Positions 31,441-61,785 of a DNA stretch of 64,000 bases are shown here, in pieces. Under the pieces are notes generated by a model. That model searched no databases, was not told the DNA's origin, and was given only the letters and a program-made list of their open reading frames with translations. Within the stretch, counting starts at the first letter, position 1; each line of letters starts with the position of its first letter. The DNA is from Candidatus Onthoplasma sp. (GTDB lineage: Bacteria; Bacillota; Clostridia; Christensenellales; UBA1242): the NCBI GenBank assembly GCA_045633705.1, contig JAZQYV010000005.1:24561-88560 (forward strand), in the 5' to 3' direction. The position numbers were made by a program, and so were the translations under genes.

Positions 31441-32367
31441 ATGAACATAGTATTTTTTGGAACTAATGAGTTTAGTGCTACGGTGGCGGAAAGTATACTT
31501 AATAGCGAACATAAGATTTTGGCGATAGTGGCACAACCCGATAAAGCAAACAGTAGGGGTGGCAAGGTTAAGTTTAATGCACTTAAACAATTTGCATTAA
31601 ATAATAATATTCCACTTCATCAATTTGCTAAACTTAATATTGAGGGTGAAGAAGTGTTGCGTGAATACAATGCTGACTTTTTTGTAACCGCATCGTATGG
31701 TCAAATTATCAAGCAAAACATACTTGATTTGCCTAAATATTGTATTGTTAATGTGCACGGCTCGTTGTTACCTAAATATCGTGGACCAGCACCTATACAA
31801 TGGAGCATAATTAATGGCGAAAAGGTTACTGGTGTAACTATTATGAAGACCGAGTTAGGTCTTGACTGCGGTGAAATGTATTTAAAAAAGGAAATTAAAA
31901 TTACACCAGATGACACTAGCGATAGTTTGTTTAGCAAAATGGCTATTGTTGGTGGCGAGGCGATAGTTGAATTTTTAGATAATGCCGAGCATTACATAAA
32001 TAACGGCGAATTGCAAAACGAAATCGATATGACATATTACCCAATGCTAACCAAGGAAATGGCACATATTGATTTTAATACTGAAAGTCAAAAACTAGTC
32101 GACCTAATTCGTGGGCAATATAGTTGCAATACAATGTACTTTACCTTTAATGGTGCTAGATATAAGGTTGGTTTTGCACGTGTTGTGGAAGGACAAGGAA
32201 GTGCTGGCGAAGTATTAGAGGCAAGTGCAAAGAAAGGACTTATAGTTGCCACAAGCGATAGTGCTATTGAAATAATCAAAATCCAACCAGAAGGCAAACC
32301 AATGATGGACGCCCGTGCATTCTGCAATGGCGGAAAGATAAAGGTTGGAGCCTTTATCAATGAATAG
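31441..32367 (+). CDS. fmt: Methionyl-tRNA formyltransferase
   Basis: FFGT..F, QPDK, NVHGSLLPKYRGPAPIQ and GLDCG. Confidence 0.96.
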   Translation: MNIVFFGTNEFSATVAESILNSEHKILAIVAQPDKANSRGGKVKFNALKQFALNNNIPLHQFAKLNIEGEEVLREYNADFFVTASYGQIIKQNILDLPKYCIVNVHGSLLPKYRGPAPIQWSIINGEKVTGVTIMKTELGLDCGEMYLKKEIKITPDDTSDSLFSKMAIVGGEAIVEFLDNAEHYINNGELQNEIDMTYYPMLTKEMAHIDFNTESQKLVDLIRGQYSCNTMYFTFNGARYKVGFARVVEGQGSAGEVLEASAKKGLIVATSDSAIEIIKIQPEGKPMMDARAFCNGGKIKVGAFINE

Positions 32368-32395
32368 TGAAAAATTGCGTACGATATCACATTTA
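32359..32395 (+). repeat. Degenerate heptamer-repeat element overlapping the fmt stop
   Basis: AATGAAT AGTGAAA AATT... Confidence 0.45.
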
Positions 32396-32409
32396 TTACA
32401 AATGAATTA

Positions 32410-32536
32410 TGTCATACCGACCGAGTAAGGCGAGTGGAGTGTATCTGGCTGAAAGTTTAATTATAGTTAACATTAATTTTAACATTTGACCATTAACCAG
32501 ATACTCTCGACGCGCTACGCTTGCTTCGGTATGACA
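32410..32536. repeat. GC-rich palindromic REP/MITE-like element
   Basis: Terminal IR TGTCATACCGA / TCGGTATGACA and inner IR GAGTGTATCTGG / CCAGATACTCTC around an AT-rich core. Confidence 0.75.
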
Positions 32537-32567
32537 AAACAATAATAGCAAAAAAGGGAAAACAAAA

Positions 32568-33593
32568 GTGAAAATATTAGCGGATTATAGTTTAAACGAA
32601 TTACAAGAGTTGCTTAACTTGCCTAAGTTTAGGGTTAAGCAGATTTTTGATGCAATAATGCAAGCTAAGGACTATAATCAAACCACTATTCCTAAAAAGA
32701 TGTATGAAGAGTTGCAAGGCGAGTATATTTTAAAGCCGGTTGAGATTTTTGAAGTATACTGTTCACAGGATGGTACTAAAAAGTATTTGTTAAAGTTGTG
32801 GGACAACAATATTATCGAATGTGTGTTCCTAACTCAAAACTATGGCAACACTATTTGTATGTCAACGCAAGTTGGTTGTCGTATGGGGTGTAAATTTTGT
32901 GCATCTACTACTAATGGCCTAATTCGTAATTTAAGTGCGGGCGAAATGCTAAGTTGTATTGCAACTGTTAGTGCAGATAATGGCAAGTGCAACGAGCGTA
33001 ATTTTACCAACATTGTGCTTATGGGTAGTGGTGAACCATTTGATAACTATGACAATGTAGTTAAGTTTTTAAGGCTGATTACCAACACTGATGGCTTTAA
33101 TGTTAGCGAACGCAATATTTCGCTTTCTACTTGCGGGCTTGTACCAAAGATTTATGATTTTATGAAGGAGGAACTGAATGTAACACTTTGTGTATCGTTG
33201 CACGCCAGCACGGACGAAGTGCGTAAAACTATAATGCCTATTGCTAATGCGTATACAATTAAGGAAATTGTTGAGGCGTTAAAGGTGTATAGCGAAACTA
33301 CTAAGCGTAGAGTGGTATTAGAATATTGCCTAATTAAAGATGTAAATGATAGTTTTGATGATTGTAAGCGACTAGCAAATTTATTTAAAGGTATTACCTG
33401 CCACTTTAATGTGATATGCCTAAATCCTAATGGTGGAAGTTTAAAGGCAACCACTAAAAAGGAAGCATATGCGTTTGTAAGGAAACTTGAAAGTTTGGGC
33501 TTAAGTGCAAGTTTACGTCGAAGTCAAGGCAGTGACATCAACGGCGCTTGCGGTCAATTAAGGGCAAAAAGATTAAAGGAAATTTGTGAATAA
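32568..33593 (+). CDS. rlmN: 23S rRNA/tRNA m2A methyltransferase RlmN
   Basis: CRMGCKFC radical-SAM motif, MGSGEP and ACGQL. Confidence 0.93.
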   Translation: MKILADYSLNELQELLNLPKFRVKQIFDAIMQAKDYNQTTIPKKMYEELQGEYILKPVEIFEVYCSQDGTKKYLLKLWDNNIIECVFLTQNYGNTICMSTQVGCRMGCKFCASTTNGLIRNLSAGEMLSCIATVSADNGKCNERNFTNIVLMGSGEPFDNYDNVVKFLRLITNTDGFNVSERNISLSTCGLVPKIYDFMKEELNVTLCVSLHASTDEVRKTIMPIANAYTIKEIVEALKVYSETTKRRVVLEYCLIKDVNDSFDDCKRLANLFKGITCHFNVICLNPNGGSLKATTKKEAYAFVRKLESLGLSASLRRSQGSDINGACGQLRAKRLKEICE

Positions 33594-33736
33594 ATTTAAA
33601 GTTGATGTCAATAGTTTTTGACATTAATTTTTTTATGTGGTATAATGATAATATAAATAATTTTAAGGCAAATAATATTAATTAGGACAAACATTATTAA
33701 GCTTTATCTAAAATAAAAATACATAAGAGGTGAATT

Positions 33737-34393
33737 ATGGCAAAAATTGTAGTAAGTGCATCAAGCTTGCCAGCAGGTAGAAATATGTCTAGTCAGTTGG
33801 ACTATATTAAGAAAATGCAAAATTTTGGCGCGGACATGTACCACTTGGATGTAATGGACGGCCTGTTTGTTAAAAATCAAACAGTAGATTACACATATTT
33901 GGAAGAGTTGAAGATGAGCTCAACATTGCTTTTTGATGTGCATTTGATGGTGCAGTACCCAACCAAGGTTATAGCAAAATATGCAAAAGCTGGCGCAAAT
34001 ATTTTAACTATACATTATGAGGCGTTTGCCAACGATAAGCTTTTTGTTAAAACTTTAAAAAAGATTAAACATCTTGGTATGATGGCAGGTATTGCTATTG
34101 ACCTTGACACCGATATTAGCATTATTCAACCATTTTTAAAATATTGTGACCTAGTGCTTGTAATGACGGTTAAGGCAGGCAAAGGCGGTCAAGGCTTTAT
34201 TGAAAGCGCACTAAAAAAGGTTAAGGCAATTAAAAAGGCTGATAAACGAATTTTGGTGGAAGTTGATGGCGGAATTAATGATGTTACAGGTGCAAAAGCA
34301 GTAAAGGCTGGTGCTGATATACTTGTTAGCGGCTCATACATTTATAACAACGATTCCTATGAGGCAATCCAAAGCTTGAAAGGTAAAAAGTAA
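33737..34393 (+). CDS. rpe: Ribulose-phosphate 3-epimerase
   Basis: HLDVMDG, DVHLMV, VMTV..G.GGQ and VDGGIN. Confidence 0.92.
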   Translation: MAKIVVSASSLPAGRNMSSQLDYIKKMQNFGADMYHLDVMDGLFVKNQTVDYTYLEELKMSSTLLFDVHLMVQYPTKVIAKYAKAGANILTIHYEAFANDKLFVKTLKKIKHLGMMAGIAIDLDTDISIIQPFLKYCDLVLVMTVKAGKGGQGFIESALKKVKAIKKADKRILVEVDGGINDVTGAKAVKAGADILVSGSYIYNNDSYEAIQSLKGKK

Positions 34394-35121
34394 TGGATAA
34401 TAGATACTTTTTTGAATACAACCAGCAAGTAAATGCTGGCGATATTATAGAATTAGACAAAACCGAAACATCACATCTAGTAAAAGTGCGCCGCGCTAAA
34501 ATTGGCGACACTATTACAGGCTTTTGTGGTGATGGATTTGACTATACTTTAATCATTGATGAAATAGGCAAGACCACTAAATGCCGTATTGATGGGAAAG
34601 TTAAAAATAAGGCGGTTGATGTTACACCGGTAACGGTGTTTTTGTCTACGCTTAAAAATGACGCGTTAAATGAAAGTATTGATAATCTTACTCAACTTAA
34701 TGTTAAAAACATTGTGTTATTTGACACCAAATTTAGCGTTGCAAATATTGATGAGGACAAGCTTGAGAAATTGCGTACTCGTAGTATTCAAGCATGCAAA
34801 CAATGTGAGCGTGCCGATTTTGTTAATATTACCAGTATGAAATATAAGAAAGTTATTAGCTGCCTTAAAGAATACGATTTAGTGCTATTTGCTTACGAAA
34901 ACACAAGCAATTCTTTTGAAAGCAATTTAAAAGAGTTTAAAGGTAAAAAGATTGCCTTAATAGTAGGTTGCGAAGGTGGATTTAGCCCTGAAGAGGCAGA
35001 AGAATTTAACAAAGTTGCAAAAACTATATCTTTAGGTAAAACTATACTTCGTGCGCCAGTTGCGTGTACGGCACTAGTGTCGGCAGTGATGAGCGGACTT
35101 GGCGAGTGGGGAAACGGCTAA
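34393..35121 (+). CDS. rsmE: 16S rRNA m3U1498 methyltransferase RsmE
   Basis: HLVKVRR, ACKQCER, VGCEGGFS and LGKTILRA. Confidence 0.9.
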   Translation: MDNRYFFEYNQQVNAGDIIELDKTETSHLVKVRRAKIGDTITGFCGDGFDYTLIIDEIGKTTKCRIDGKVKNKAVDVTPVTVFLSTLKNDALNESIDNLTQLNVKNIVLFDTKFSVANIDEDKLEKLRTRSIQACKQCERADFVNITSMKYKKVISCLKEYDLVLFAYENTSNSFESNLKEFKGKKIALIVGCEGGFSPEEAEEFNKVAKTISLGKTILRAPVACTALVSAVMSGLGEWGNG

Positions 35122-35179
35122 CGCCGAATGAAGAATGAAAAATGAAGAGTGAAAAACTAAAGGACGTTGTAGCATTATA
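35113..35179 (+). repeat. Heptamer-repeat element overlapping the rsmE stop
   Basis: AACGGCT AACGCCG AATGAAG AATGAAA AATGAAG AGTGAAA AACT..GCATTATA. Confidence 0.7.
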
Positions 35180-35246
35180 GACATCAAGACATAAAAATAT
35201 TTAGGAAGCGTTTGTGTTTATAACATTAAGATAAAGGGAGAAAATT

Positions 35247-35897
35247 ATGAAAGTGATTTTTGCAACAACTAATAATAGGAAATTGGAAGATTTGAATAAT
35301 ATTATTAGTGAAAATGGTTTAAATTTAGAGGTTTTATCTTTAGGTGATATTGGTTGGGATAGAGGCGAGATTGAAGAAAATGGAAACTCTATTTATGAAA
35401 ACTCATTAATTAAAGCAAATGCAGTTTTTGATTTTTGCAAACAAGCCAACATTAATTATCCAATTATTACTGATGATGCAGGTTTATTTGTAGATGCATT
35501 AAATGGAGAGCCTGGTATTTATACGGCAAGATATGCTGATTTTGAATTTTCTCAAAATAAAGATTTGCCTAAACATTATGTGTTGATTAAAATGCTTAAT
35601 AATATGGAAAATCAAATAAACAGAGATTGTGAATATAGATGTGCTATTACTATTATGTTTAATGATGGAACATATAAGCAATTTGATGGTTCAACCAAAG
35701 GATTGATAGATACTAAAATTAATGATCCAATAAAGAAACCTTATTTTTATTCATTGTTTATAGATAAAAACACAATGACACCATTCAATCAATTAACAAG
35801 CGAGCAATTAAAAAATACATATAGATATACAACACTTACTAAGGCGTTGAAGTTTTTGGACTTACAATCTTCAAAAACTAGAACTATTCAAAAATAA
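35247..35897 (+). CDS. HAM1/RdgB-like NTP pyrophosphatase (atypical C-terminus)
   Basis: FATTNNRK, EENG..ENSLIKA and DDAGLFVDALNGEPGIYTARY. Confidence 0.85.
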   Translation: MKVIFATTNNRKLEDLNNIISENGLNLEVLSLGDIGWDRGEIEENGNSIYENSLIKANAVFDFCKQANINYPIITDDAGLFVDALNGEPGIYTARYADFEFSQNKDLPKHYVLIKMLNNMENQINRDCEYRCAITIMFNDGTYKQFDGSTKGLIDTKINDPIKKPYFYSLFIDKNTMTPFNQLTSEQLKNTYRYTTLTKALKFLDLQSSKTRTIQK

Positions 35898-35914
35898 TTT
35901 ATATGGGAGAACTA

Positions 35915-37156
35915 ATGAAATTTAGCATAATAACGCTTGGGTGCAAGGTTAATGAGTATGAAAGTCAAAGCATGATGGCTCAACTAGAACAGGAGGGGCA
36001 TCAGGTGAGTGAAGGACTGGTGGTGGCGGATTATTATATTATTAACACCTGTGCGGTTACTAATATGGCGGAGCGTAAGTCAAGGCAAGTAATTGCAAAG
36101 ATTAAAAAACTTAATCCTAATGCCAAAATGCTGGTATGCGGATGTGCAAGTCAAAATAACTTGAAGCAATTTGAGGATTATGAGCAGGTTGTGGGAATTA
36201 TTGGCACGCATGGCAAGCATAATATTGTAAAGTATTTGGAGCACAAAGGCATACTTGATATGACTGAAGAATATACAAATATGAGTTTTGCAAAAAACAC
36301 ACTTACAAGGCAATATATCAAAGTGCAAGATGGTTGCAATAACTTTTGTACCTATTGTATAATACCATATACTCGTGGACGTAGCCGTAGCAGGGAATTA
36401 AATGATATATTGGAAGAGATAAAGCAAAATACAGCGCTTGAAATTGTGATTACTGGCATAGATGTTAGTGATTATAAAATTGATGGCGAAAAGGCTCTTA
36501 TAACATTACTTGAAGAAGTTAACAAACTTGGCAAGCGTTTTAGAATTTCATCTATACATTGTGGGGTATTAACTGAAGAATTTTTAACACGTTTAAGTAA
36601 GTGTGAAAACTTTTGTCCATTTTTTCATATAAGTATGCAATCGGCAAGCAATGAAACTTTAAAGCGTATGAACCGCCATTATGCTATTGAAGAATATATT
36701 GATGTATGTAATAACGTTAAGAGACATTTTCCAAACGCGTGTATTTCGACTGATATTATAGTGGGCTTTAAGGGCGAAAGTGAAGAAGAATTTGCTGAAA
36801 CTGTACTTAATTTAAATAAAATACCATTTGCTTTTATGCATATTTTTCCTTATAGCATACGCAAAGGCACGGTGGCGGAAAAGTTATCGGGTGATGTGCC
36901 TAGTGAGATAGTTAAGCAACGTGAAAAAGATTTAAAACAACTTAGCGATAAATTTTATGATAAATTTTTAACTGAAAATATAGGTAAAACACACAAGGTG
37001 TTGGTTGAAGAATATAGAGATGGATATAGCGTGGGCTATACTGAAAATTATATTTATACATATATTGACCAAAAGCTACCTAATGGCATTTACGAAGTTG
37101 AACTTATTGAAAAGTTTAAAGATGGGTGTCGTGGGCAAATTATTGCTAATGATTAA
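35915..37156 (+). CDS. mtaB: tRNA t6A37 methylthiotransferase MtaB
   Basis: TLGCKVNEYES, NTCAVT, GC and QDGCNNFCTYCIIP; follows rsmE. Confidence 0.93.
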   Translation: MKFSIITLGCKVNEYESQSMMAQLEQEGHQVSEGLVVADYYIINTCAVTNMAERKSRQVIAKIKKLNPNAKMLVCGCASQNNLKQFEDYEQVVGIIGTHGKHNIVKYLEHKGILDMTEEYTNMSFAKNTLTRQYIKVQDGCNNFCTYCIIPYTRGRSRSRELNDILEEIKQNTALEIVITGIDVSDYKIDGEKALITLLEEVNKLGKRFRISSIHCGVLTEEFLTRLSKCENFCPFFHISMQSASNETLKRMNRHYAIEEYIDVCNNVKRHFPNACISTDIIVGFKGESEEEFAETVLNLNKIPFAFMHIFPYSIRKGTVAEKLSGDVPSEIVKQREKDLKQLSDKFYDKFLTENIGKTHKVLVEEYRDGYSVGYTENYIYTYIDQKLPNGIYEVELIEKFKDGCRGQIIAND

Positions 37157-37200
37157 TTAATAATCAAGAGTGAATAATTGAGTGGTGCTTTGGCATTATA
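37148..37200 (+). repeat. Heptamer-repeat element overlapping the mtaB stop
   Basis: AATGATT AATTAAT AATCAAG AGTGAAT AATT..GGTGCTTTGGCATTATA. Confidence 0.7.
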
Positions 37201-37281
37201 TTTTATAAAAAACAAAAGTTAAAATTTATTTGGAGAAAATTAAAATTTGTGTTATACTAAAATTATATAGGAGAGGTTGGT

Positions 37282-37617
37282 ATGGAAGATTGTATTTTTT
37301 GTAAGATTAGAGTGGGTGAAATACCTAGCACAAAGTTGTATGAAGATGAAGATTTTATGATAATTAAGGACATCAATCCTGTTGCTAAAATCCATTTGAT
37401 TGCAATCCCTAACGAGCATTATGCAACATTAGAGATGCAAACAGATGAAGGCGCAAGAGTGCTTGGTAAGATTTTAAGCAAGATTGGTGACTTGGCAGAT
37501 AGCCTAGGCCTTGAAAATGGGTATCGACTTGTAATCAATCAAGGTGAAGATGCTGGTCAAACAGTACATCATCTACATATTCATATAATGGGTGGCGAAA
37601 AGCTTAAGAATTTATAA
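37282..37617 (+). CDS. HIT family nucleotide-binding protein
   Basis: DCIFCKI and AGQTVHHLHIHI. Confidence 0.95.
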   Translation: MEDCIFCKIRVGEIPSTKLYEDEDFMIIKDINPVAKIHLIAIPNEHYATLEMQTDEGARVLGKILSKIGDLADSLGLENGYRLVINQGEDAGQTVHHLHIHIMGGEKLKNL

Positions 37618-37840
37618 TTGAAATAACAAAAGATTTAGTGGTAAGACACTAAATTTTTTGTTTGTAACGATAATCAGCTTGTTATAAAACTGGTTTTAGG
37701 GGTTAATTTGGGAACATGATAAGTAAAAAATGTGTTAAAATATTAAAAAATTTGGAAAAGTTGTAAAAATCTATTGACAAAAGCGAATTGGGTGTGTAAA
37801 ATAGAAAAGAATTTATAAGACCAAAGGTGGTGAAAATAGA

Positions 37841-38137: not shown

Positions 38138-40504
38138 ATGGATTATTCTACTTTACTTAATGAAGAACAATTAAAGGCGGTGCTTAATACTGAAGGGCCA
38201 GTATTAGTGTCGGCCGGTGCGGGCTCTGGAAAGACTAGGGTGTTAACATATCGCATAGCATATTTGCTTACCGAACTGCACGTAGACCCATACAGAATAT
38301 TGGCTATTACATTTACCAACAAAGCCACAAATGAAATGAAAGAACGTGTATGCAAAATACGTGAAGATGCATCTAATGTGCTGGTTGCAACATTTCATAG
38401 TTTTTGTGTAAGAATGCTACGTAAATATCAATCAGTGTTAACCGACTATCAACCAAATTTTAGTATATACACCGACACCGACCAAACCAAAGTATTTAAG
38501 CAAGTATTTGCAGATTTAGGCATTAGTGATGATGACACCAAAGGCAAGATAAAACATGCCATTAGCGCTATTAAAAGTGATAATATTCATATAGACGAAT
38601 ATTGCGAAATTAACAAGCATAGCAAAGGCATTGATGTTATAAAGCGTGGGTATTTAGCATATCAAAACGAGCTTAAGAAAAACAATGCAATGGACTTTGA
38701 CGACCTGCTTATAAACTTTTACAAACTTATTGCTACAAACCAGGATGTGCGCGAGAGTTTGCAAGAGCGCTTTCAGTATATTCACGTGGACGAATTCCAG
38801 GATACAAACAAATTACAATATGACATTATACGTATACTTGCCGACAAGCATCAAAATATATTTATAGTTGGAGATGAGGACCAATCAATATACAGCTGGC
38901 GTGGCGCGAATATTGGAAACATATTCCAATTTTCAAAAGACTTTAAGAACGTAAAGATATTTAAGCTTGAACAAAACTATCGTAGCACAAAGGCAATATT
39001 AGATAAAGCCAATATGCTAATTGAAAACAACAAAAACAGGTTGAGTAAAAAATTATATACCAACAACGACCAAGGAACTGATGTTAACTATTTTTGCGCA
39101 AGAGATGAACAAGATGAGGCAGATTATGTAGTGCGTCATATATTGCAACAACGTGCCCAAGGGGTTGATTTAAACAACATTGCAATACTGCTGCGCCTAA
39201 ATGCGCTTACGCGCCCATTTGAAGAAAAATTATTGGCATATAATGTGCCACACAAAATATATAATGGTGTAAAGTTTTATGAACGTGCGGAGATTAAAAG
39301 CACGTTATCATATTTGATTGCAATAGTGAACCCTAACGACAGCACAAGCTTTAGCAGGCTTATAAACTTTCCTAAACGTGGAATTGGCGAAACCAGTATA
39401 TCTCAAATTAAGGCACTTGCTGAAATGCGCCAATGCAGCATGAAAGATATAATATACAACTGCGAAACCGAAGATATAAAACCAGCATTAAGGGCAAAAC
39501 TGCAGCCATTAAAGCAATTACTAAAAGGTATTGATGAACAGGCACTAAAAGGCGACTTGTACGAGCTTATAACATATATCATCGACGAGGCAAAGATACT
39601 GCAAAGCTTTAATCAAAAAGATGAAACAGAACTGGATAGGTATATAAACGTTACATCTCTTATAAAATCGATTAAAGACTACCAAGAGGCAAATCCAGAC
39701 GCAACACTTAATGAATATTTAGAGAGTGTAACACTTATAAGCGATATCGATACTGAAAGCTCAAAGAACGGCGTAATTATTGCAACAGTGCATGCGGCTA
39801 AAGGACTAGAGTTTGACACCGTGTTTATATCAGGGCTAGAGGAAAAGATATTCCCTGTATCACGTGCCGACCAAGAAGACCAAGAGGAAGAACGTCGACT
39901 TATGTATGTGGCAATAACACGTGCTCGCAAAGATTTGTACTTAACTAGCAGTAGTTCACGCTTTATGTATGGTAAACGTGATGCGGCAGTTAAAAGTAGG
40001 TTCTTACGTGAAATTGATATGGTTAAGGACCAAGCATTTGGTTACGGCGGATATTATGGTAATGAGTATACAAGTGCATATGGCAAGTATCGTGCTGATA
40101 CTGAACAGGGCAGTTACAACAGCGATTATAGTTATGGAAGTTCAAACAAATATATAGCGCGTACTAATCCTGCATATAAGGGATATACTAGTTCTAGTTA
40201 TGGTAGTAGCCCTAGACCTACACAAAGCAATACAAATCTTAACTTTAAAACTAATAGTTTTGGTGGCGGAAGTACAATAGGCGGATTAAATATTGCAGGA
40301 ATAAGTAAAGGCGTTTCTAAGCAAAGTGTGGATACATCTAAAGTAGTGGCAGGAGCAAAGGTAAAACATATTAAGTTTGGCGACGGGGTTATAGCAGATA
40401 CAAGCACATACGCAAGCAACAAATGCGTTACTATTGATTTTGGAGTAATAGGCAAAAAGACATTGTCACTTGACTATGCGCCAATAACGTTTGTTAATGG
40501 TTAA
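38138..40504 (+). CDS. pcrA: ATP-dependent DNA helicase PcrA/UvrD
   Basis: AGAGSGKT, DEFQDTN, QNYRST, HAAKGLEF and EERRLMYVAITRA; C-terminal Tudor-like VKHIKFGDG. Confidence 0.96.
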   Translation: MDYSTLLNEEQLKAVLNTEGPVLVSAGAGSGKTRVLTYRIAYLLTELHVDPYRILAITFTNKATNEMKERVCKIREDASNVLVATFHSFCVRMLRKYQSVLTDYQPNFSIYTDTDQTKVFKQVFADLGISDDDTKGKIKHAISAIKSDNIHIDEYCEINKHSKGIDVIKRGYLAYQNELKKNNAMDFDDLLINFYKLIATNQDVRESLQERFQYIHVDEFQDTNKLQYDIIRILADKHQNIFIVGDEDQSIYSWRGANIGNIFQFSKDFKNVKIFKLEQNYRSTKAILDKANMLIENNKNRLSKKLYTNNDQGTDVNYFCARDEQDEADYVVRHILQQRAQGVDLNNIAILLRLNALTRPFEEKLLAYNVPHKIYNGVKFYERAEIKSTLSYLIAIVNPNDSTSFSRLINFPKRGIGETSISQIKALAEMRQCSMKDIIYNCETEDIKPALRAKLQPLKQLLKGIDEQALKGDLYELITYIIDEAKILQSFNQKDETELDRYINVTSLIKSIKDYQEANPDATLNEYLESVTLISDIDTESSKNGVIIATVHAAKGLEFDTVFISGLEEKIFPVSRADQEDQEEERRLMYVAITRARKDLYLTSSSSRFMYGKRDAAVKSRFLREIDMVKDQAFGYGGYYGNEYTSAYGKYRADTEQGSYNSDYSYGSSNKYIARTNPAYKGYTSSSYGSSPRPTQSNTNLNFKTNSFGGGSTIGGLNIAGISKGVSKQSVDTSKVVAGAKVKHIKFGDGVIADTSTYASNKCVTIDFGVIGKKTLSLDYAPITFVNG

Positions 40505-40547
40505 TGAATAATGAAGAATGAACAACTATTGATGCTTTCGCATTATA
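40496..40547 (+). repeat. Heptamer-repeat element overlapping the pcrA stop
   Basis: AATGGTT AATGAAT AATGAAG AATGAAC AACT..GATGCTTTCGCATTATA. Confidence 0.75.
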
Positions 40548-46325: not shown

Positions 46326-47105
46326 CTATAATTTAACTCCATTATTTAGTTCACGTTTAAGTATTTGGGTTATAAATAAGTTTGAATATTCTTCAATCAA
46401 GTAGTGTTCGTTTTCCGCATTGATTTCATGTTGCAATAATTGAACATAATCTTCTAAGAAAACCTCTTGCTTTTCGCCCAACATTGAGGTTGTTTTTTCA
46501 CGTATTTTGGCAATACGTTGAGAATGCTCGGGCGTTATATATCTCCAATGCCAGCCTTCAGCTTTTTTTATACCTGTTGCTTCTTCTAGTCTATGCGAGG
46601 TAGGGTAGCTGAGTATAAAGCCATGCTTTTCCATAATCATACGTTTAGTTAAAAATTTTAATTCGCCAAGCCCTGCTTCAGGGAAACGCTGTTTGATTTT
46701 TTCAGGAACTTCAATATTTTCGGTTTTAATTGAAGCATCAAGAGCAAGGGATGAAAGGTGTTCGCTGTAACCAATTTGCGCGGTTTCGCTTTTTGTTTGA
46801 TTGATTGCTTTTTTTATTGATTTGGTATTTTTTAAAACTCCTGCAAATTTTTCAATTTTTGCAAATACTTGGTCAAAAGTTGTGCGACCGGCAGAATTTA
46901 GTTTACATTCGGCGCCAAGGGCAGTAAGTTCTTTTTCGGCTTCTTGATATGCGAGATAAGTTTGCTTTTCAACCGTGCCATATTTTTTGCCCCAATCGCC
47001 CATAGCAACGGGAACTTTTTCATATTCAAAACCCTTAAAAGCTTCGGGATTATATTTAGTATTTTTGTTAATGATTGTTAAGTATGGGTTTGTAATTTGT
47101 GTCAT
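46326..47105 (-). CDS. VanY-like D,D-carboxypeptidase (peptidase M15B)
   Basis: SAGR, SEHLSSLALD (SxHxxxxAxD), GFILSYP and EGWHWRY. Confidence 0.8.
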   Translation of the reverse strand: MTQITNPYLTIINKNTKYNPEAFKGFEYEKVPVAMGDWGKKYGTVEKQTYLAYQEAEKELTALGAECKLNSAGRTTFDQVFAKIEKFAGVLKNTKSIKKAINQTKSETAQIGYSEHLSSLALDASIKTENIEVPEKIKQRFPEAGLGELKFLTKRMIMEKHGFILSYPTSHRLEEATGIKKAEGWHWRYITPEHSQRIAKIREKTTSMLGEKQEVFLEDYVQLLQHEINAENEHYLIEEYSNLFITQILKRELNNGVKL

Positions 47106-55063: not shown

Positions 55064-55262
55064 TACTTAATTTATTGTTAGCAAGCTAATCAGCATAAAG
55101 ATTAGCTTGTTTTTATTTGAATTTTTAAAATATTAAGGCGGTAAGCCAAAATAACTAAAGTTTCGACATTATTAGTTTAAAGACGGCATTTTATTGTATG
55201 TGTTTTATTTGGATTTATGGCGATTTAAGGGTAAAATGGTGCTAGTATATTAAGGAGGTAAA

Positions 55263-55598
55263 ATGACGGCAGATAAAAAATCAGGGGTTTTGTACAATAT
55301 GGCAAAACAAGCAAAACGCAGGATGAAAAACTTTAGCCAAGGAGGCATTAAAACATTGTCATATGCCAAACTGGCCAGTTCGGATAAAGACCAAATGCTA
55401 TACAAAAAGGTATGCAAAATGTTGCAAGAGGAACGCATTATTATAAACCCAATTAATGAGCTAGTTGATAAAAAATACTATGATACGCTTTCAGCTGAAA
55501 GTAAACAGCGTTACATATTAGACTTGTCTGATAAATATCGTGAGATGAAAGAACGTTACGACCGAGAGCATGCATTTTCTCGTGTATCGAATTATTAG
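55263..55598 (+). CDS. Hypothetical protein
   Basis: Perfect AAGGAGG RBS; downstream terminator; TTCGACA (Spo0A-box-like) at 55162. Confidence 0.8.
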   Translation: MTADKKSGVLYNMAKQAKRRMKNFSQGGIKTLSYAKLASSDKDQMLYKKVCKMLQEERIIINPINELVDKKYYDTLSAESKQRYILDLSDKYREMKERYDREHAFSRVSNY

Positions 55599-55736
55599 TA
55601 AATAAAAAAGCTATAACCTTTAAAGTTATAGTTTTTTGTTTTTAAATAGATATTTAATATTATTTTTTTAATTATTGGTTATATTTTAGTTGTCACAATT
55701 TTTTAAATGTGCTAAAATGCGTATAGGAGATTTTTT

Positions 55737-57056
55737 ATGATTTTTTGGGCTATATTTATTTATGTGTTTTTAATTCTTGCTATGAATATTGCTGTTGTTT
55801 GTTTGGAAACAGATTGCAAGAAGATTATTTTTTGGAACTTGATAGTAACAATTACATCAATTTTTGGATTTTTGGTTTACTTTATTTGGTTTTGTGATAA
55901 GCCAAAGCTTAAGAAGAGTATTAATACAAAGTTTGAAGAAGATGAAGTGTATAAAAATTTAGTTGAATTTTCAGTTGCAAAAACATCTTCTAACAATGAA
56001 ACTCTTAATTTTAATAAGAGGCATTATTCTGCTGAAATTTTTAAAAACAACAATATTAAAGTGCTTGATAGCCACGAGCAATTTATTAATAATTTGACTG
56101 CGGATTTGGATAAGGCGGCAAATTATATTATTATTGTTAATGAAAAGTTCTTAGATGGCTTTGGCGGCGATAATATTATTGCGCTACTTAAGGAAAAACA
56201 CGCAATGGGCGTTGATGTTAAATATGTATATGGAAGTGTGAAGTTTAAAAATCGCAAAATTTTAAAAGACCTTGTGCAAAGTGGGATAAGAATTTGTAGA
56301 TTTAACAAATTTGATAAATTTAACCGATATTACAAAAATGCAAAAGACATAATATCTATTGATGGCGAAAGCGCTTATATTTATAGCTCGTTGCAACGAA
56401 AAAATGCCGACAAGCCAATAAGCTATTCTAATCTATATTACAAGCTAACAGGCGAAATTGTAAAGAGTATTGATATTGATTGTCACTTAGATGTTACATA
56501 TGCAACCCATAAGTTTTATGACATGCAAAAGAAAGAGTTTTTGCCTAATGGCGAGATTGAAATGCAATATGTATCAAGCGTTGCAGATAAGGATTTTGAA
56601 GGCTTATTTTTAAAAGCAATTAACGATGCCAAAAAGCGCATAGTAATACATATACATAAGTTTGTTCCAACGCCGGCCATTAAGCAAGCGTTGCAAATGG
56701 CAATTTTGTCGGGCATTGACGTTAGGATAATGCTATCTAAAGCAAATTGCTCAATAAGTTATTATTCGTCACGTGCATATTTAAAGGAAATGGCTATGTA
56801 TGGGGCAACAGCATACATTTATGATGGTATGATAGGTTCTAATTTTATTGTAATTGATAATTTAACCTATGTTGGCAATCTTTCGTTGGTTAATCTTGAA
56901 ATTAGAAACAACTTGCAAAATGCATTGATAATTAATAACGTTGATTTTGCAAACAAAACATTGGCATATTTTAATGATATGATTAACAACAGCTACCGCA
57001 TATGCAAACCTAAAAATGTTCTATTCAAAGAAAAAATATTTAAAAAATTCAACTAG
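55737..57056 (+). CDS. Cardiolipin synthase-like protein with degenerate HKD motifs
   Basis: PLDc_N-like 2-TM N-terminus and two PLD-like halves; catalytic H/K replaced in both. Confidence 0.75.
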   Translation: MIFWAIFIYVFLILAMNIAVVCLETDCKKIIFWNLIVTITSIFGFLVYFIWFCDKPKLKKSINTKFEEDEVYKNLVEFSVAKTSSNNETLNFNKRHYSAEIFKNNNIKVLDSHEQFINNLTADLDKAANYIIIVNEKFLDGFGGDNIIALLKEKHAMGVDVKYVYGSVKFKNRKILKDLVQSGIRICRFNKFDKFNRYYKNAKDIISIDGESAYIYSSLQRKNADKPISYSNLYYKLTGEIVKSIDIDCHLDVTYATHKFYDMQKKEFLPNGEIEMQYVSSVADKDFEGLFLKAINDAKKRIVIHIHKFVPTPAIKQALQMAILSGIDVRIMLSKANCSISYYSSRAYLKEMAMYGATAYIYDGMIGSNFIVIDNLTYVGNLSLVNLEIRNNLQNALIINNVDFANKTLAYFNDMINNSYRICKPKNVLFKEKIFKKFN

Positions 57057-57182
57057 GTGCGTGGCGCACTGCCAATAAAGTAAATGCACCGATTGAAATT
57101 GCAAGGTGTATTTATTTTTGCGGTATATACTAGATATAATAAAGAGTTAAGATAGTTACATAAAAATAAAAAAGGAAAAGAA

Positions 57183-58025
57183 ATGATACCAAAATTTGGA
57201 GTTGCGGGTGTGCCTGTAAATTATAAAGGCAAACCGAAAGATTTTTATGATTGGCTAAAGGGTATGAATTTGAATGCGTACGAAATTCAATGTACTTTTG
57301 GCTTCAAGATGAGTGACAAAAATAAAGAGCTTGTTTTAAAAGCTCAACAAGACGGTTTTTATATAAGCATGCACGGACCCTATTATATTAATCTTGGAAG
57401 TGTAAACGGGCAGGTTGTAGAGCGCAGTATTGACATATTAACCAAAGGTGTGGAGCTTGCTAAAAGCGTTAATTGCAATCGCATTATTTTCCACCCAGGC
57501 GGTGGCCATGAAAACACTGAAGAAGGCAGAGCTCAGGCGATTAAACGCATAATAAATCATTTAAACAGCATATCATCAAGCATTGATATGGGAGATGTGC
57601 GATTTTACCCGGAAATTGGCGGAAAAACAGCCAATTTAGGCTCGTTAGATGAAATTATTGAAATATGTAAAAATTGTCAATATGCCTATCCTTGTATTGA
57701 CATTGCACATCTTCATGCGCGTGAAGTTGGTTCAATTACATCAAAGGACATTTTAAGGGCAAAATTAGAGCATTTAAAGCAAGAGTTGCCTGATAAGTTT
57801 AACAAAGTTCATTTCCACGCCTATACAATCAATTATGGAGATAAGGGCGAAATTAAACACTTAGTGCATGGAGAAAATATGCCGGATGGAAGTGAAGGGT
57901 TGCCAAATCTTGATTGGTTTGTAGAATTGTTGCACGAAATGAATATTGAACCTTGGGTTATCAGTGAGGCTAGCGATAGTCAAGAACAGGGTGCAAAATA
58001 TATGCGAGATAAGTATTTTGAGTAA
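57183..58025 (+). CDS. Endonuclease IV-like TIM-barrel protein
   Basis: HGPYYINL, FHPG, E..GK, DIAHLHAR, HFH, GE..H and ISE metal ligands. Confidence 0.85.
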   Translation: MIPKFGVAGVPVNYKGKPKDFYDWLKGMNLNAYEIQCTFGFKMSDKNKELVLKAQQDGFYISMHGPYYINLGSVNGQVVERSIDILTKGVELAKSVNCNRIIFHPGGGHENTEEGRAQAIKRIINHLNSISSSIDMGDVRFYPEIGGKTANLGSLDEIIEICKNCQYAYPCIDIAHLHAREVGSITSKDILRAKLEHLKQELPDKFNKVHFHAYTINYGDKGEIKHLVHGENMPDGSEGLPNLDWFVELLHEMNIEPWVISEASDSQEQGAKYMRDKYFE

Positions 58026-58034
58026 AATATATTT

Positions 58035-58865
58035 ATGGAAAAGTTAGAGTTTAAAGTAACTGAAAAAAGAGATTTAGGCAAGGAGTTAAGAAAGCGATTG
58101 CCCCTTTTTTCTAATTATCAAATAGAAAAGTTGTTTAAAAATAAAGATATAAAGGTTAATGGTGTTAGAAAAACAAAACCTTGTAAACTTGAGCCAAATG
58201 ATATTGTAGAAGTTTATTATCAAGGAGTAAACGACGAGCCTTGGTTTAGTATTGTGTTTGAAGACGATAATATAGCAATTGTAAATAAGCGCGCCGGGAT
58301 TGAAGTGGTAAGTGAAGATGACCGCAACCTACTAGACGTGTTAAAAATGCAATATCGAGAGCTTTATGCTGTTCATCGCATTGACCGAAATACTGAAGGC
58401 CTTGTCATATTTGCAAAAAATGAAATTGCAGAAACTGAATTGTTAAAAGCCTTTAAAGAGCGCACTATTATTAAGAAATATGCTTTAAAAGTTAAAGGCA
58501 AGGTTCAAATTGAGGCAATTAAGCATAAACTATATTTGAAGAAGCTTGCAGATGCATCAAAAGTGATTGTATCAGAGGTTAAAACTAGTGGCTACGAAGA
58601 GATTGTAACACGCTTTAATTTAATCAAATATGAAGACAATAACACTATTCTTGAAGCAGAACTTGTTACTGGCAAAACTCATCAAATACGTGCGCATATT
58701 TCATACTTTGGCCACCCTATAATAGGCGATGGCAAATATGGTGTGGGAGATAATCAGCAAATGTGCTTAACAGCATATTATATACAGTTTAAATTTGGTA
58801 AAAAATCAGTGCTAGAATATTTGAATGACAAATCGTTTGAAATACTTCCAACGTGGTGGAATTAA
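58035..58865 (+). CDS. RluA-family pseudouridine synthase
   Basis: HRIDRNTEG, TGKTHQIRAH and PIIGDGKYG. Confidence 0.92.
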   Translation: MEKLEFKVTEKRDLGKELRKRLPLFSNYQIEKLFKNKDIKVNGVRKTKPCKLEPNDIVEVYYQGVNDEPWFSIVFEDDNIAIVNKRAGIEVVSEDDRNLLDVLKMQYRELYAVHRIDRNTEGLVIFAKNEIAETELLKAFKERTIIKKYALKVKGKVQIEAIKHKLYLKKLADASKVIVSEVKTSGYEEIVTRFNLIKYEDNNTILEAELVTGKTHQIRAHISYFGHPIIGDGKYGVGDNQQMCLTAYYIQFKFGKKSVLEYLNDKSFEILPTWWN

Positions 58866-58914
58866 CTTCTTTAAACTTGACAAAAGACTATAAATATATT
58901 ATAATACTTGCATT

Positions 58915-59418
58915 ATGAAAGAAGATTTGATTAAATTTCCAAGCGATAAAGATATTGAAAAGTATATGAAAAATTGTATATACAAATTTAATTTATCCGA
59001 AGTGATTGATAAAATGCCAATCACCGCCAAAAATGACAAACAGATTTTGTTATACAAAACGTTTCCAAAAGATAAAGCAAGGTGCCGTTATTATATTATT
59101 GATATGAGTGGGCAAATTTTAGGTGTGATTGGGGCACACATTTTAGGTGAATCCGCATCATTAGATGCTGAAATATTGCCAGATTTTAGAAACTGTGGTG
59201 TTGGGGTGTCTGCGGTTAACGCTATTGAAAGAGATATTTTTGAATCTAGTGATGAAAGATTTAGCAAAATTAATTCACTAATAATTGAAACAATCCACGC
59301 CCCAGCTATTTCGGTTGCAAAAAAATGCGGCTTTAAGAGCGATTATAAGTATTTATATGTTTTAACGAAATCTGATTATTTTGCACAAAAAAATCAATGT
59401 GATAAAACGTTACTATAG
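58915..59418 (+). CDS. GNAT family acetyltransferase-like protein
   Basis: ILPDFRNCGVG motif A and AKKCGF; perfect TTGACA(58877)-17-TATAAT promoter. Confidence 0.65.
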   Translation: MKEDLIKFPSDKDIEKYMKNCIYKFNLSEVIDKMPITAKNDKQILLYKTFPKDKARCRYYIIDMSGQILGVIGAHILGESASLDAEILPDFRNCGVGVSAVNAIERDIFESSDERFSKINSLIIETIHAPAISVAKKCGFKSDYKYLYVLTKSDYFAQKNQCDKTLL

Positions 59419-59546
59419 TTATATAAAATAATAGTAAAGCAAAAATTAAATTATAGTAGGGCAGCAATGCTCTATTTTTTTTGGTTAAAAAGATTTTTGA
59501 AAGATACAAAGATTTATCTAAACAAAAATATACTATTGGCAATATT

Positions 59547-59703
59547 GTGGCACGACTAGGTGCAAATAGAGAATAAGTATGGTAAACTACGCGAAACAAA
59601 CTCTAACGAGTTTTAAAATGCTAAAGCATTTAGTGGCAATAGATGCCATATTTCGCAAGTTTTGAATTACGTCAGAAATTATTAAATGCCACTAAAGTGC
59701 CGC
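59547..59703. ncRNA. Candidate structured non-coding RNA (unassigned)
   Basis: Closing stem GTGGCAC/GTGCCGC, central A-rich bubble, inner GCGAAA/TTTCGC stem enclosing three mini-hairpins. Confidence 0.45.
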
Positions 59704-60042
59704 TTATAATTTCTTCCTAAATTATAAAATAAGATTAATTATGATAAAATTAGGCTAATTGTGGTTGTTTTGCGAATAGATGCAAACAGAAAATATATAT
59801 AAAAACACATGTAAGCGTAGAAATCTTTAAAAAATATAATAAAAAGTATGGGAAAGCTGTAAAATTAATTGACATTTGAGGTGAGATGGGGTAATATATA
59901 CAAGGAATCGAAAGATTGCATATAATGATATATATATTTGTACAAAAAACTTAAAAATTTTAAAATTATTTAAAAAATTTGTAAAAAATAGTTGACATTG
60001 TGTTAAATTTATAGTATCATAAATAAGTCAGCATATGAATAG

Positions 60043-60118
60043 CGGGGTGTAGCGCAGTTGGTAGCGCACGTGGTTTGGGACCATGGGGCCGGGAGTTCGA
60101 GTCTCTTCACCCCGACCA
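60043..60118 (+). tRNA. tRNA-Pro(TGG)
   Basis: CGGGGTG acceptor, loop TTTGGGA, CCA. Confidence 0.96.
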
Positions 60119-60126
60119 TCTCATTT

Positions 60127-60203
60127 GGACCTTTAGCTCAGTTGGTTAGAGCAACCGGCTCATAACCGGTCGGTCCGCGGTTCGAGTCCGTGAAGGTCCA
60201 CCA
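60127..60203 (+). tRNA. tRNA-Ile2/Met(CAT), probably Ile2
   Basis: Anticodon loop CTCATAA; GGACCTT acceptor typical of Firmicute tRNA-Ile2. Confidence 0.9.
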
Positions 60204-60260
60204 TTTAATTTATTTAATGGTTTAAATGAGAATATAAATGCTGAAAATCAAGGCAAATAT

Positions 60261-60337
60261 GGCCCGGTAGCTCAGTTGGTTAGAGCGCCAGCCTGTCACG
60301 CTGGAGGTCGAGAGTTCGAGCCTCTTCCGGGTCGCCA
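60261..60337 (+). tRNA. tRNA-Asp(GTC)
   Basis: Loop CTGTCAC, GCCA end. Confidence 0.96.
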
Positions 60338-60339
60338 AT

Positions 60340-60415
60340 GCCTCGATAGCTCAGTCGGTAGAGCAAAGGACTGAAAATCCTTGTGTCGTTGGTTCGATTC
60401 CGACTCGAGGCACCA
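60340..60415 (+). tRNA. tRNA-Phe(GAA)
   Basis: Loop CTGAAAA, ACCA end. Confidence 0.96.
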
Positions 60416-60468
60416 ATCACAAGATTTTCAAATCGAGTGCAGGACTAATACCGAATAGTCCTAAATAT

Positions 60469-60543
60469 GCTAGTGTGGCTCAACGGTAGAGCAGCTGACT
60501 TGTAATCAGCAGGTTGGGGGTTCGATTCCCTTCACTAGCTCCA
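60469..60543 (+). tRNA. tRNA-Thr(TGT)
   Basis: Loop CTTGTAA, TCCA end. Confidence 0.96.
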
Positions 60544-60547
60544 ACAT

Positions 60548-60633
60548 GGGAAGATTGCAGAGCGGCCAAATGCTACGGACTGTAAATCCGTCGTCTTATG
60601 ACTTCGATGGTTCGAATCCATCTCTTCCCACCA
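60548..60633 (+). tRNA. tRNA-Tyr(GTA)
   Basis: Loop CTGTAAA, long variable arm, ACCA end. Confidence 0.96.
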
Positions 60634-60634
60634 A

Positions 60635-60678
60635 GTTAATAAAAATAAGAGGTTGTGATGCCTCTTATTTTTATTAAC
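60635..60678 (+). terminator. Terminator hairpin after the tRNA operon
   Basis: GTTAATAAAAATAAGAGG / CCTCTTATTTTTATTAAC perfect 18-bp IR. Confidence 0.8.
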
Positions 60679-60679
60679 A

Positions 60680-60845
60680 ATGATATGTCCGTTGGACATG
60701 ATATGGCTTAGGCAATGATATATTTGCAAGCAAATATGATATGTTGCTTGTTGCAACATGGAGGACATGTCATATCATTTTGCCTAATGGCAAAATATCA
60801 TTTGATTAAATCAAATATCATTATGAACGTAGTGAATAATATCAT
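60680..60845. repeat. Symmetric ATGATAT x4 / ATATCAT x4 ladder with interspersed mini-hairpins
   Basis: ATGATAT at 60680, 60698, 60715, 60736; ATATCAT at 60772, 60795, 60815, 60839; spacers largely self-complementary. Confidence 0.9.
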
Positions 60846-60898
60846 CAAAATTGCATTAAATTATTGTAATATGCTTAATTTTATGATATAATATGGAT

Positions 60899-61243
60899 AT
60901 GAAAGATAATATATTATTAGAAAAATCAAAAGAGTTTGCGATTGAAATTATAAATTTATGCGATAATATAAAAAATTGCTCCATTATAACTAATCAATTA
61001 TCAAGAAGTGGAACAAGTATTGGCGCAAATATTCACGAAGCACAATATGCGCATGGTAAAGCAGACTTTATTGCCAAACTTGAAATTGCATTAAAGGAAT
61101 GTAGCGAAACAGAGTACTGGTTAGAACTTTTAGTAAAAACTCAAAAAATAAATGAAAAAGTTTTTAAAGATTTAAAGAATGACGCTGGAAGCATTAGGAG
61201 AATATTAATCAAATCTTGTACAACAGCAAAAGATAATAAGTAA
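60899..61243 (+). CDS. Four-helix-bundle protein (TIGR02436 / 23S rRNA IVP / Avd-like fold)
   Basis: KS..FA..II, QLSRSGTSIGANIHEA, DFIAKLEIALKE..ETEYWLELL; TTGTAA-17-TATAAT (with TG extension) ends 6 nt before ATG 60899 (alternative start 60893). Confidence 0.9.
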   Translation: MKDNILLEKSKEFAIEIINLCDNIKNCSIITNQLSRSGTSIGANIHEAQYAHGKADFIAKLEIALKECSETEYWLELLVKTQKINEKVFKDLKNDAGSIRRILIKSCTTAKDNK

Positions 61244-61260
61244 TTTAAAGGATAAGATAA

Positions 61261-61578
61261 ATGGATAGTAAAAAACTTATAGATCTAATCAAGTTAAAAG
61301 ATAAATATGCAATTGCTTTAATGGACTATTATATCGATAAAGGTGTTAATACAAAAGATTTGCAAAGATATATTGATAGTATATGTGATGAGTGGGCTAG
61401 AACTTTTATAGCAACGTATCACAATAACCTTACAGAAAAAGAGGTTCAAATAGCTATTTTTAGGTATTTAGATGGCATTGGAGCAAAACAATCACATTCT
61501 GGCAAACGTTTTAGTGAGGCATTGTATAGACAAATGCACAATTACGTAAATAATCAAAATTCGGAATTGTCTAAATAA
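61261..61578 (+). CDS. Hypothetical protein
   Basis: AAGGA RBS, 17 bp after the four-helix-bundle gene; 105 aa. Confidence 0.65.
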   Translation: MDSKKLIDLIKLKDKYAIALMDYYIDKGVNTKDLQRYIDSICDEWARTFIATYHNNLTEKEVQIAIFRYLDGIGAKQSHSGKRFSEALYRQMHNYVNNQNSELSK

Positions 61579-61628
61579 TTTTAAAATTTTGTTGACAATA
61601 CGGTTAAAGTGGAGTATAATAAAAATAT

Positions 61629-61658
61629 ATGAAGAAATGTTGCTGTAACTTAAAATAG
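61629..61658 (+). CDS. Putative cysS leader peptide MKKCCCNLK
   Basis: ATG AAG AAA TGT TGC TGT AAC TTA AAA TAG, 8 nt after a perfect TTGACA(61592)-17-TATAAT(61615) promoter. Confidence 0.7.
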   Translation: MKKCCCNLK

Positions 61659-61714
61659 ATTAGGTACAAGTATTTGTACACATTTTTGAGTGGTGCAATC
61701 AAGATTTAAATATC

Positions 61715-61749
61715 ATAGGTCAAGAGAACACGGCTCTTGACCTATTTTT
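61715..61749 (+). terminator. Attenuator terminator in the cysS leader
   Basis: ATAGGTCAAGAG / CTCTTGACCTAT 12-bp perfect stem with T-run, between promoter and cysS. Confidence 0.8.
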
Positions 61750-61751
61750 AT

Positions 61752-61785
61752 AGTGAAAAATGAATAATTATAGATGCTTTGATTT
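61752..61785 (+). repeat. Partial heptamer-repeat element in the cysS leader
   Basis: AGTGAAA AATGAAT AATT ATA GATGCTTTG. Confidence 0.55.

Follow-up and report, generated by a model that had tools for sequence, protein, structure and literature searches.

Dispersed heptamer arrays behind gene ends in a Candidatus Onthoplasma genome and their possible relationship to four-helix-bundle gene cassettes

Why should a tandem heptamer repeat run over the stop codons of several functionally unrelated genes? The question arises in a 64,000-nt stretch of Candidatus Onthoplasma sp. (GenBank assembly GCA_045633705.1, contig JAZQYV010000005.1, positions 24,561 to 88,560 of the forward strand). We call this whole stretch the window (G000:C5:24561-88560); G000 denotes the host assembly and other G-numbers, such as G003 and G079, the comparison genomes. 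An earlier note made from the letters alone had described five copies of the repeat, four of them fused in one phase to the stop codons of fmt, rsmE, mtaB and pcrA, and had proposed either an element that targets gene ends or an RNA binding site. With moderate confidence, and on the basis of sequence comparisons, we favour a different answer: the arrays would be gene-less, one-armed offshoots of the arms of cassettes that carry a four-helix-bundle (FHB) gene, operating at the DNA level, and the overlap with stop codons would be a by-product.

The heptamer element and its copies

The host assembly measures 1.12 Mb in 23 contigs, with 33% GC and 93% completeness, and our own codon-usage caller placed 998 genes in it. 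In its full form the element consists of three to five ARTGAAD units followed by an AATT-type last unit and a tail of ~20 nt. The five stretches described in the note lie where it placed them, with the four stop triplets as quoted, and the gene names fmt, rsmE, mtaB, pcrA and cysS hold. The copies in the window, together with the tail motif discussed below, are:

32359..32398, + strand: decayed fmt copy; two units and a degenerate tail, unit 1 overlapping the last fmt codons and the TAG stop at 32365-32367
35127..35179, + strand: rsmE copy; five units and tail, mini-hairpin broken; begins 5 nt past the stop at 35119-35121
37148..37200, + strand: mtaB-fused copy; five units and tail, with TAA 37154-37156 at the unit 1/2 junction
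40496..40547, + strand: pcrA-fused copy; four units and tail, with TAA 40502-40504
40534..40541, - strand: GCGNNAGC DNA mini-hairpin, motif intact, on the non-mRNA strand; the other four window copies lack an intact motif
61752..61786, + strand: partial cysS-leader copy directly behind the leader terminator (stem 61715-61745); the weakest copy

Four of these copies are located at gene ends as the note had it; the cysS copy follows an attenuator terminator instead. The first heptamer supplies the last two codons of fmt, mtaB and pcrA but not of rsmE, where positions 35113-35126 are not array units.

We searched for arrays with a unit matrix learned from G000 and found 43 with a score above 12, compared to 22 and 25 in two shuffled genomes. 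The best shuffled scores were 16.2 and 18.8, and the higher value served as the cut-off. Across 8 contigs 16 arrays exceed it (~20 counting decayed copies), and all 16 lie in non-coding DNA or at the edge of a gene, each in the same orientation as the gene next upstream. By array score alone the copies at mtaB (16.8), cysS (14.7) and fmt (14.6) fall within the shuffled range. With a tail-anchored profile 10 matches exceed the shuffled best; the mtaB copy is secured by its tail-anchored score of 30.3, while cysS (18.2) and fmt (17.7) stay slightly under the shuffled best. The fmt copy is secured by a full element at the fmt junction of G022, and for the cysS copy there are only its position and a partial tail. 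In a de novo periodicity scan period 7 was not commoner than periods 4, 5, 8, 10 and 11 (58 vs 43-88 segments), and the top period-7 ranks belonged mostly to the heptamer element family.

Other forms were also encountered. A two-armed, gene-less array lies between smpB and the tmRNA gene (G000 C19:27208-27303), ends a few bases before the tmRNA 5' end and is also present in G051; at G000 C12:58949 we found a tail-only relic. Behind a stop codon of G022 (C5:54638) an array has grown to about 16 decaying units. An Rfam scan of 17 loci gave no match on the arrays. Neither promoter nor terminator was found within the element at the rsmE and pcrA copies; the mtaB copy has 4 weak promoter-like sites, and those on the + strand lie downstream of the element.

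Stop codons and filled or empty junctions

We classified the positions of 22 non-coding arrays in G000 (score above 14.5) and of 75 arrays from nine congeners, 97 in total. In G000 the upstream stop lies inside 6 arrays and 0-20 nt before the start of another 7; 2 come straight after an intrinsic terminator, and the remaining 7 are elsewhere; for the congeners the respective counts are 11, 26 within 20 nt, 11 and 27. Thus 13 of the 22 G000 arrays are at or within 20 nt of a stop, compared to 183 of 1500 random intergenic points (12.2%, p 2e-7), a null model that ignores the room taken by ribosome-binding sites and promoters, so that part of the bias may be selection. Behind a terminator we counted 60 of the 1500 points. 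The distance to stop codons thus bears out the preference for gene ends that the note had proposed, and the genome profile scan, with 16/16 top arrays on the sense strand, confirms a dispersed non-autonomous element beyond chance with a strong strand bias.

The same counts go against the idea that in-phase fusion is the rule. If the element targeted stops in a fixed phase and were selected for proteins ending in N-[DEG], one could point to the 17 fused stops of the genus, which are all TAA or TAG and in 15 cases lie at a unit junction, and to three filled pcrA alleles, not grouped in one clade, that have each gained one N codon before the D/G-stop. However, only 6 of the 22 non-coding G000 arrays contain a stop; 16 of the 22 and 64 of the relatives' 75 have none, and the phase differs among relatives, with the mtaB stop of G048 inside a unit. 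In other families 7 of 11 fused stops, called crudely, are TGA in other phases. The fused ends vary as well: N-[DEG] occurs in 3 of the 6 fused G000 proteins, whereas SmpB, a methyltransferase and a ComEC-type competence protein differ, and 17 of 832 G000 proteins end this way anyway. In G054 the same element behind rsmE goes with a different protein end and a different stop 10 nt upstream. Nor do orthologs with empty junctions support the ending as a product of the element. The empty pcrA alleles already end in D-stop in 4/5 clade members and 8/12 more distant genomes, and the empty fmt alleles of G052 and G054 have the same length as the filled one with N already at position -2. The position counts have largely refuted the phase-targeting reading, and we consider it very improbable.

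A simpler account is available for the stops themselves. Units of period 7 shift the frame with each unit, and the sequence spells TGA inside a unit and TAA or TAG at any junction after T. Of 94 arrays, 51 are directly preceded by a T and 37 have T as the last base of unit 1; TGA ends only 30 of 832 G000 genes. Because the units carry stops in all frames, 5' units often end in T and TGA is rare in the host, TAA or TAG at a junction is to be expected. The fusion to stop codons is in itself ordinary, and the overlap is likely a by-product of landing behind gene ends with units that spell stops.

We then compared the junctions within a nine-genome clade that includes G000; the number of genomes examined differs between junctions. 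The fmt junction is filled in 2/5 genomes, with a full element in G022, and is empty in G052, G054 and G063. The mtaB junction is filled in 4/7 and the pcrA junction in 3/8. Behind rsmE 2/8 genomes carry the heptamer element and 2/8 a different word-plus-hairpin repeat. The filled mtaB alleles exceed the empty ones of G045 and G063 by 3-5 residues, and the empty G054 allele is also 4 residues longer. No fixed target duplication was found in these comparisons of filled and empty junctions. When we mapped the relatives' arrays on G000, many more junctions turned out to be filled in one genome and empty in another, and orthologous copies differ in the number and identity of their units. A single clade was rejected for the filled pcrA alleles (p value of the approximately unbiased test, p-AU, 0.0004) and for the two rsmE alleles (0.002). 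Judged from these alleles, the patchy junctions may reflect repeated gain, loss or allele exchange, which fit alike. The relatives recovered from four DNA runs are mostly less than 95% alike, and no strain-level unit variation could be obtained from them; on one contig fmt is joined to rlmN by 72 other letters instead of 228.

Could such a pattern arise with FHB proteins playing no part? Polymerase slippage at AT-rich gene ends could create the units, gene conversion between repeats already present, GIY-YIG-type palindromes stacked at these junctions among them, could disperse the tail, and the FHB genes would merely hitch-hike where repeats are plentiful. The empty pcrA and fmt ends are already similar to a unit junction, the units vary as just described, several junctions carry different repeat families across relatives, G000 has no cognate FHB gene, and a slippage origin has been proposed for other heptamers (PMC4679880). 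Against this, 54 of the 64 congeners have no strict array despite common gene ends. Two distant lineages, the G000 clade and G019/G079, share the unit and both have FHB genes, and the type of repeat tracks the FHB subfamily. Stand-alone small GIY-YIG genes occurred in just 2 of the 5 array genomes searched. On balance we judge spread by slippage and conversion unlikely, and we return to offshoots of FHB cassette arms with the tail and the FHB genes themselves.

The DNA mini-hairpin and the four-helix-bundle genes

On the strand opposite the mRNA the core of the tail reads GCGAAAGC, GCGACAGC or GCGAGAGC. As DNA these 8-mers are stable: d(GCGAAAGC) melts at 76.5 C, d(GCGACAGC) at 72.0 C and the third at 71.5 C, compared to a melting temperature (Tm) of 39.0 C for the RNA r(GCGAAAGC) (PMC13037366). 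We counted the pattern GCGN(N)AGC behind 99 arrays, which include orthologous copies and are hence non-independent, and observed it on the opposite strand in 29 and on the array strand in 4; the 396 control windows gave 7 and 3. In 33 aligned tails, selected by a pattern that demands the core, 90.9% of the cells of the 4-pair stem pair on the opposite strand. For 14 of the 33 the pairing is by T.G, possible on the opposite strand only, as the mRNA strand would have C.A. The spaced repeats next to FHB genes show a related polarity. Across 73 of them the left arm has more CG-N(N)-AG loops on the opposite strand than on the gene strand (265 vs 79), and for the right arm the preference is reversed (170 on the gene strand vs 69); the strand of the loop switches with arm orientation and therefore the polarity follows the arm. 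The strand-specific mini-hairpin points to DNA recognition rather than to TRAP-like RNA recognition, and the array is likely recognised as single-stranded DNA.

These observations also bear on the suggestion that the copies are RNA sites, either for an FHB ring that tunes operon read-through or translation in the manner of TRAP, or as 3' elements that affect mRNA fate. All 16 top arrays lie on the mRNA strand behind a gene and the purine-rich units are unstructured as RNA in our folding; the structurally related Avd is an RNA-binding pentamer (bioRxiv 10.1101/2023.10.23.563531), and post-transcriptional regulation was proposed for TAACTGA arrays (PMC4679880). On the other hand, occupancy is not conserved even among close relatives, and the flanking genes serve translation, sporulation, competence and lipid synthesis or are hypothetical, with no common function. 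TRAP attenuation, by comparison, relies on a ring protein that binds RNA repeats, at conserved sites on functionally related transcripts. Little RNA is expected for the 13 of 97 classified arrays that begin just past an intrinsic terminator, nor for the FHB-linked arms, which lie between a terminator and a promoter. The conserved hairpin is of the DNA type and on the non-mRNA strand, and the cognate protein was not found in G000. The TRAP-like regulation put forward in the note is not supported, and we regard RNA sites of either kind as quite unlikely.

The connection to FHB genes, which we prefer, starts from a gene in the window and the repeat in front of it:

60899..61243, + strand: FHB gene (TIGR02436/PF05635), no second one being found in the assembly; not of the contiguous-array subfamily
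60680..60844, no strand assigned: two-armed spaced repeat, Gut-1-like; ATGATAT words with small hairpins in between, followed by the inverted arm; located past the tRNA-Tyr terminator and ahead of the FHB promoter

At the family level the association with TIGR02436 suggested in the note is supported, though related genomes are not independent in these statistics. Of the 301 genomes in a sample of the order, 27 have arrays, and an FHB gene is present in 20 of these, compared to 45 of the 274 without arrays (Fisher p 1e-9). Within the genus (64 congeners, strict three-unit pattern) arrays occur in 10, TIGR02436 in 6 and both in 5, that is, FHB in 5 of 10 genomes with arrays vs 1 of 54 without. 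The gene at 60899 is not supported as the partner, as it carries the spaced repeat. A contiguous array was found in 0 of its 79 nearest genome relatives, a few of which have little upstream DNA, and in 12 of 80 metagenome relatives of the G003 FHB protein. In G003 and G079 the heptamer units are arranged as two inverted arms, with a tRNA terminator on one side and the promoter of the FHB gene on the other, and the two FHB proteins are the closest pair of the genus (69%). On a quick FHB tree with few columns and 140 rows (27 of 167 sequences were dropped as duplicates, as short or for lack of upstream DNA) the 14 array-type FHBs cluster, requiring 3 changes instead of 13.5 when shuffled, and 0 of 500 shuffles were as low; the window FHB lies outside this group.

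Some observations at FHB loci bear on mobility. At the tRNA-His site G003 has an array and FHB cassette between 34-nt direct repeats of a terminator, G000 has a gene-less spaced repeat, and G048 and G022 are empty and run into the gene that follows the G003 cassette. G000 contains two such gene-less, two-armed Gut-1-like repeats, each directly behind a tRNA terminator; tRNA-His is shown for one, and the tRNA of the other was judged by eye. Exact flanking direct repeats of at least 16 nt occur at 12 of 130 FHB loci vs 1 of 400 control pairs and may be target duplications or cassette ends. A tRNA or tmRNA lies within 420 nt upstream of 33 of 104 FHB loci.

Some further features of these loci were noted. 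The window FHB gene is likely leaderless, with TATAAT ending at 60892. In the genus (60864-60901 in the window included) the -10 box of FHB genes comes some 6-10 nt ahead of the ATG, which suggests mRNAs without a leader; many genome relatives have a ribosome-binding site instead. Behind the window gene, 61261-61578 is a 105-aa open reading frame (ORF) with no Pfam or NCBIfam match, possibly cassette cargo. Other FHB words in the genus (G023, G045, G019) comprise an 8-nt repeat and two further spaced word-plus-hairpin types, and the G019 FHB gene has an in-frame stop.

Proposed mechanism, known systems and neighbouring features

How could an arm spread without its gene? In the scheme that we propose, a pentamer of the cognate FHB subfamily would bind four to five units of a single-stranded arm, with the GNNA mini-hairpin marking the opposite strand. 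New copies of the arm would then be made by host replication or repair enzymes at sites past stops and terminators that are AT-rich and resemble a unit. Those that break genes or ribosome-binding sites would be purged, and the remaining ones would decay by unit slippage; an arm over a gene end would alter 0-5 C-terminal residues, which is likely neutral. We give binding of 4-5 units by the cognate pentamer and copying by host enzymes about an even chance, a step suggested by the peak of 4-5 units per array, by the pentameric state of solved relatives (2rld, 5 chains, E 1.6e-29) and by finding neither a reverse transcriptase nor a Y1 transposase that tracks the arrays. As movers these enzymes were considered and rejected: PF00078 was found in 0/5 array genomes searched, and for the HUH/Y1 transposase PF01797 was not found in G000 and occurs in 1/10 array genomes (partial) vs 7/54 others. 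As the cognate FHB gene was not found in the assembly, the G000 copies are likely relics or moved in trans. In a bolder version, mobility would need neither transposase nor reverse transcriptase: every FHB subfamily would read its own repeat word as a pentamer, host enzymes would place copies of single-stranded arms, flagged by GNA/GNNA DNA mini-hairpins, past stops and terminators, and the one-armed tailed arrays, as the minimal non-autonomous form, would revisit junctions and rewrite C-termini of core proteins. This version seems rather doubtful to us.

Several results weigh against descent from FHB cassette arms. A single clade is not rejected for the filled alleles of fmt (p-AU 0.20) and mtaB (0.13), and these two sites are thus explicable by inheritance with loss. 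The tailed form occurs in 8 of the 64 congeners, all from the G000 clade, and the tail was not seen among the FHB-linked arms inspected. The mini-hairpin is kept by only 29 of the 99 arrays, and covariation in the tail is weak to modest (10 of 500 shuffles). When folded by the nearest-neighbour method, as DNA and RNA and on both strands, three window copies and the smpB copy did no better than shuffles (z-scores -1.95 to +0.55). There is no FHB match in 7 of the 27 array genomes of the order sample and in 5 of 10 in the genus, and G000 (93% complete) lacks the cognate subfamily. Clustering by repeat type could follow from physical linkage alone, and the score threshold clips the short-array end of the unit-number distribution. 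Finally, the sense arrays without exception share the G-rich strand, on which 799 of the 998 genes also lie, and because no array behind a lagging-strand gene was found, sense and leading strand are inseparable here.

Parts of this picture are already in print separately, namely heptamer arrays behind stops, heptamers beside S23p genes and the Gut-1 motif. In Xanthomonas most GGGAATC arrays are found on the coding strand within 50 bp past a stop codon, which some of them overlap, and many are arranged as inverted pairs (PMC4692102). In Beggiatoaceae 13 ORFs overlap TAACTGA arrays at the stop, which was deemed a necessary consequence of the sequence (MacGregor 2015, PMC4679880). Our arrays resemble both as short, dispersed, non-coding tandem heptamers between aligned genes, near or over stops; they differ in their unit, in the conserved tail with a DNA mini-hairpin, in the FHB link and in having no G-quadruplex potential. 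The accessible text of the Beggiatoaceae paper (PMC4679880) does not mention 'four helix', and the link to FHB genes is not made in the accessible portions of either heptamer paper.

Heptamers and PF05635 do meet in the intervening sequences (IVS) of 23S rRNA, which RNase III excises. The Coxiella IVS has tandem heptamers in variable number upstream of an S23p gene (PF05635/TIGR02436) inside inverted repeats (PMC4990558). A comparable case is found in G025, where an FHB gene with inverted heptamer arms lies within 23S rRNA-like sequence as a classical intervening sequence, the rRNA being judged by eye. The window copies, unlike an IVS, are gene-less, one-armed and at junctions of protein genes, and in the genus the two FHB-linked arms do not enclose the ORF, both being entirely upstream of its promoter. 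Gut-1 (RF01706) was presented as a non-coding RNA, and in its consensus small hairpins stand between RUGAAAU words (PMC2864571). It shares the core of our unit and has no match to the contiguous arrays, and the evidence here favours DNA; the spaced ATGATAT repeat of the window matches it with 33.9 bits and another FHB-upstream repeat with 31.2 bits, against a gathering score of 50.

In diversity-generating retroelements (DGR) Avd is a pentameric four-helix barrel similar to S23 (PMC3240598; bioRxiv 10.1101/2023.10.23.563531), and the target includes a DNA hairpin with a GRNA loop near the gene 3' end, on the sense strand and with a GC-rich stem of 7-10 bp (PMC3240598). The loops GAAA, GACA and GAGA of our tails fit GRNA, which is a likeness only: here the hairpin is on the opposite strand with a stem of 2-4 bp, and no reverse transcriptase was found in 5/5 genomes searched.

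Other mobile repeats compare as follows. Like the repetitive extragenic palindromes REP and REPIN, which are short intergenic hairpin repeats found patchily and in clusters as singlets and inverted doublets and are associated with RAYT/IS200-type HUH transposases, the element has a short hairpin of conserved strand polarity and occurs in stacked clusters. Unlike them it has a tandem heptamer body, and Y1 transposase does not track it. Classical miniature inverted-repeat transposable elements have terminal inverted repeats and a short fixed target duplication, whereas most copies here are one-armed and the junction comparisons gave no fixed duplication. The array sites also differ from those of TRAP, being unconserved and on unrelated transcripts.

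What we add is the one-armed tailed form, the refutation of the phase rule with empty sites, and the mismatch between repeat and resident FHB. A search that covered few subscription journals returned no publication joining cassette and repeat. Dispersed heptamer repeats and PF05635 proteins are both without explanation in the literature examined, and an FHB-reader system, if true, would bring Gut-1, the intervening sequences of 23S rRNA and the dispersed bacterial heptamers under one scheme. Two types of repeat coexist in this 1.1-Mb genome. Only one of them is accompanied by its cognate gene, and the protein for the other is available from congeners; the mismatch allows a specificity test of two proteins against two repeats.

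Several neighbouring features deserve mention. One further repeat is located directly behind the fmt copy:

32410..32536, no strand assigned: separate imperfect-palindrome element stacked behind the fmt copy, not the heptamer element; likeness judged by eye

A palindrome of this type flanks a small GIY-YIG gene at G000 C10:29313, and gene-less imperfect palindromes of the GIY-YIG type are often stacked directly behind the heptamer element in G000 and G003. The cysS leader (61629-61750) encodes a Cys-rich nine-residue leader peptide followed by a strong terminator and resembles ribosome-mediated attenuation; Rfam found no T-box there. Between rsmE and mtaB an RdgB/HAM1-like gene (35247-35897) has no match in the relatives' regions examined, and by this comparison the junction appears to be a hot spot for gene gain as well. 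Finally, 46326-47105 on the - strand gives a weak VanXY-type D,D-peptidase match, with 40 bits against a family cut-off of 250.

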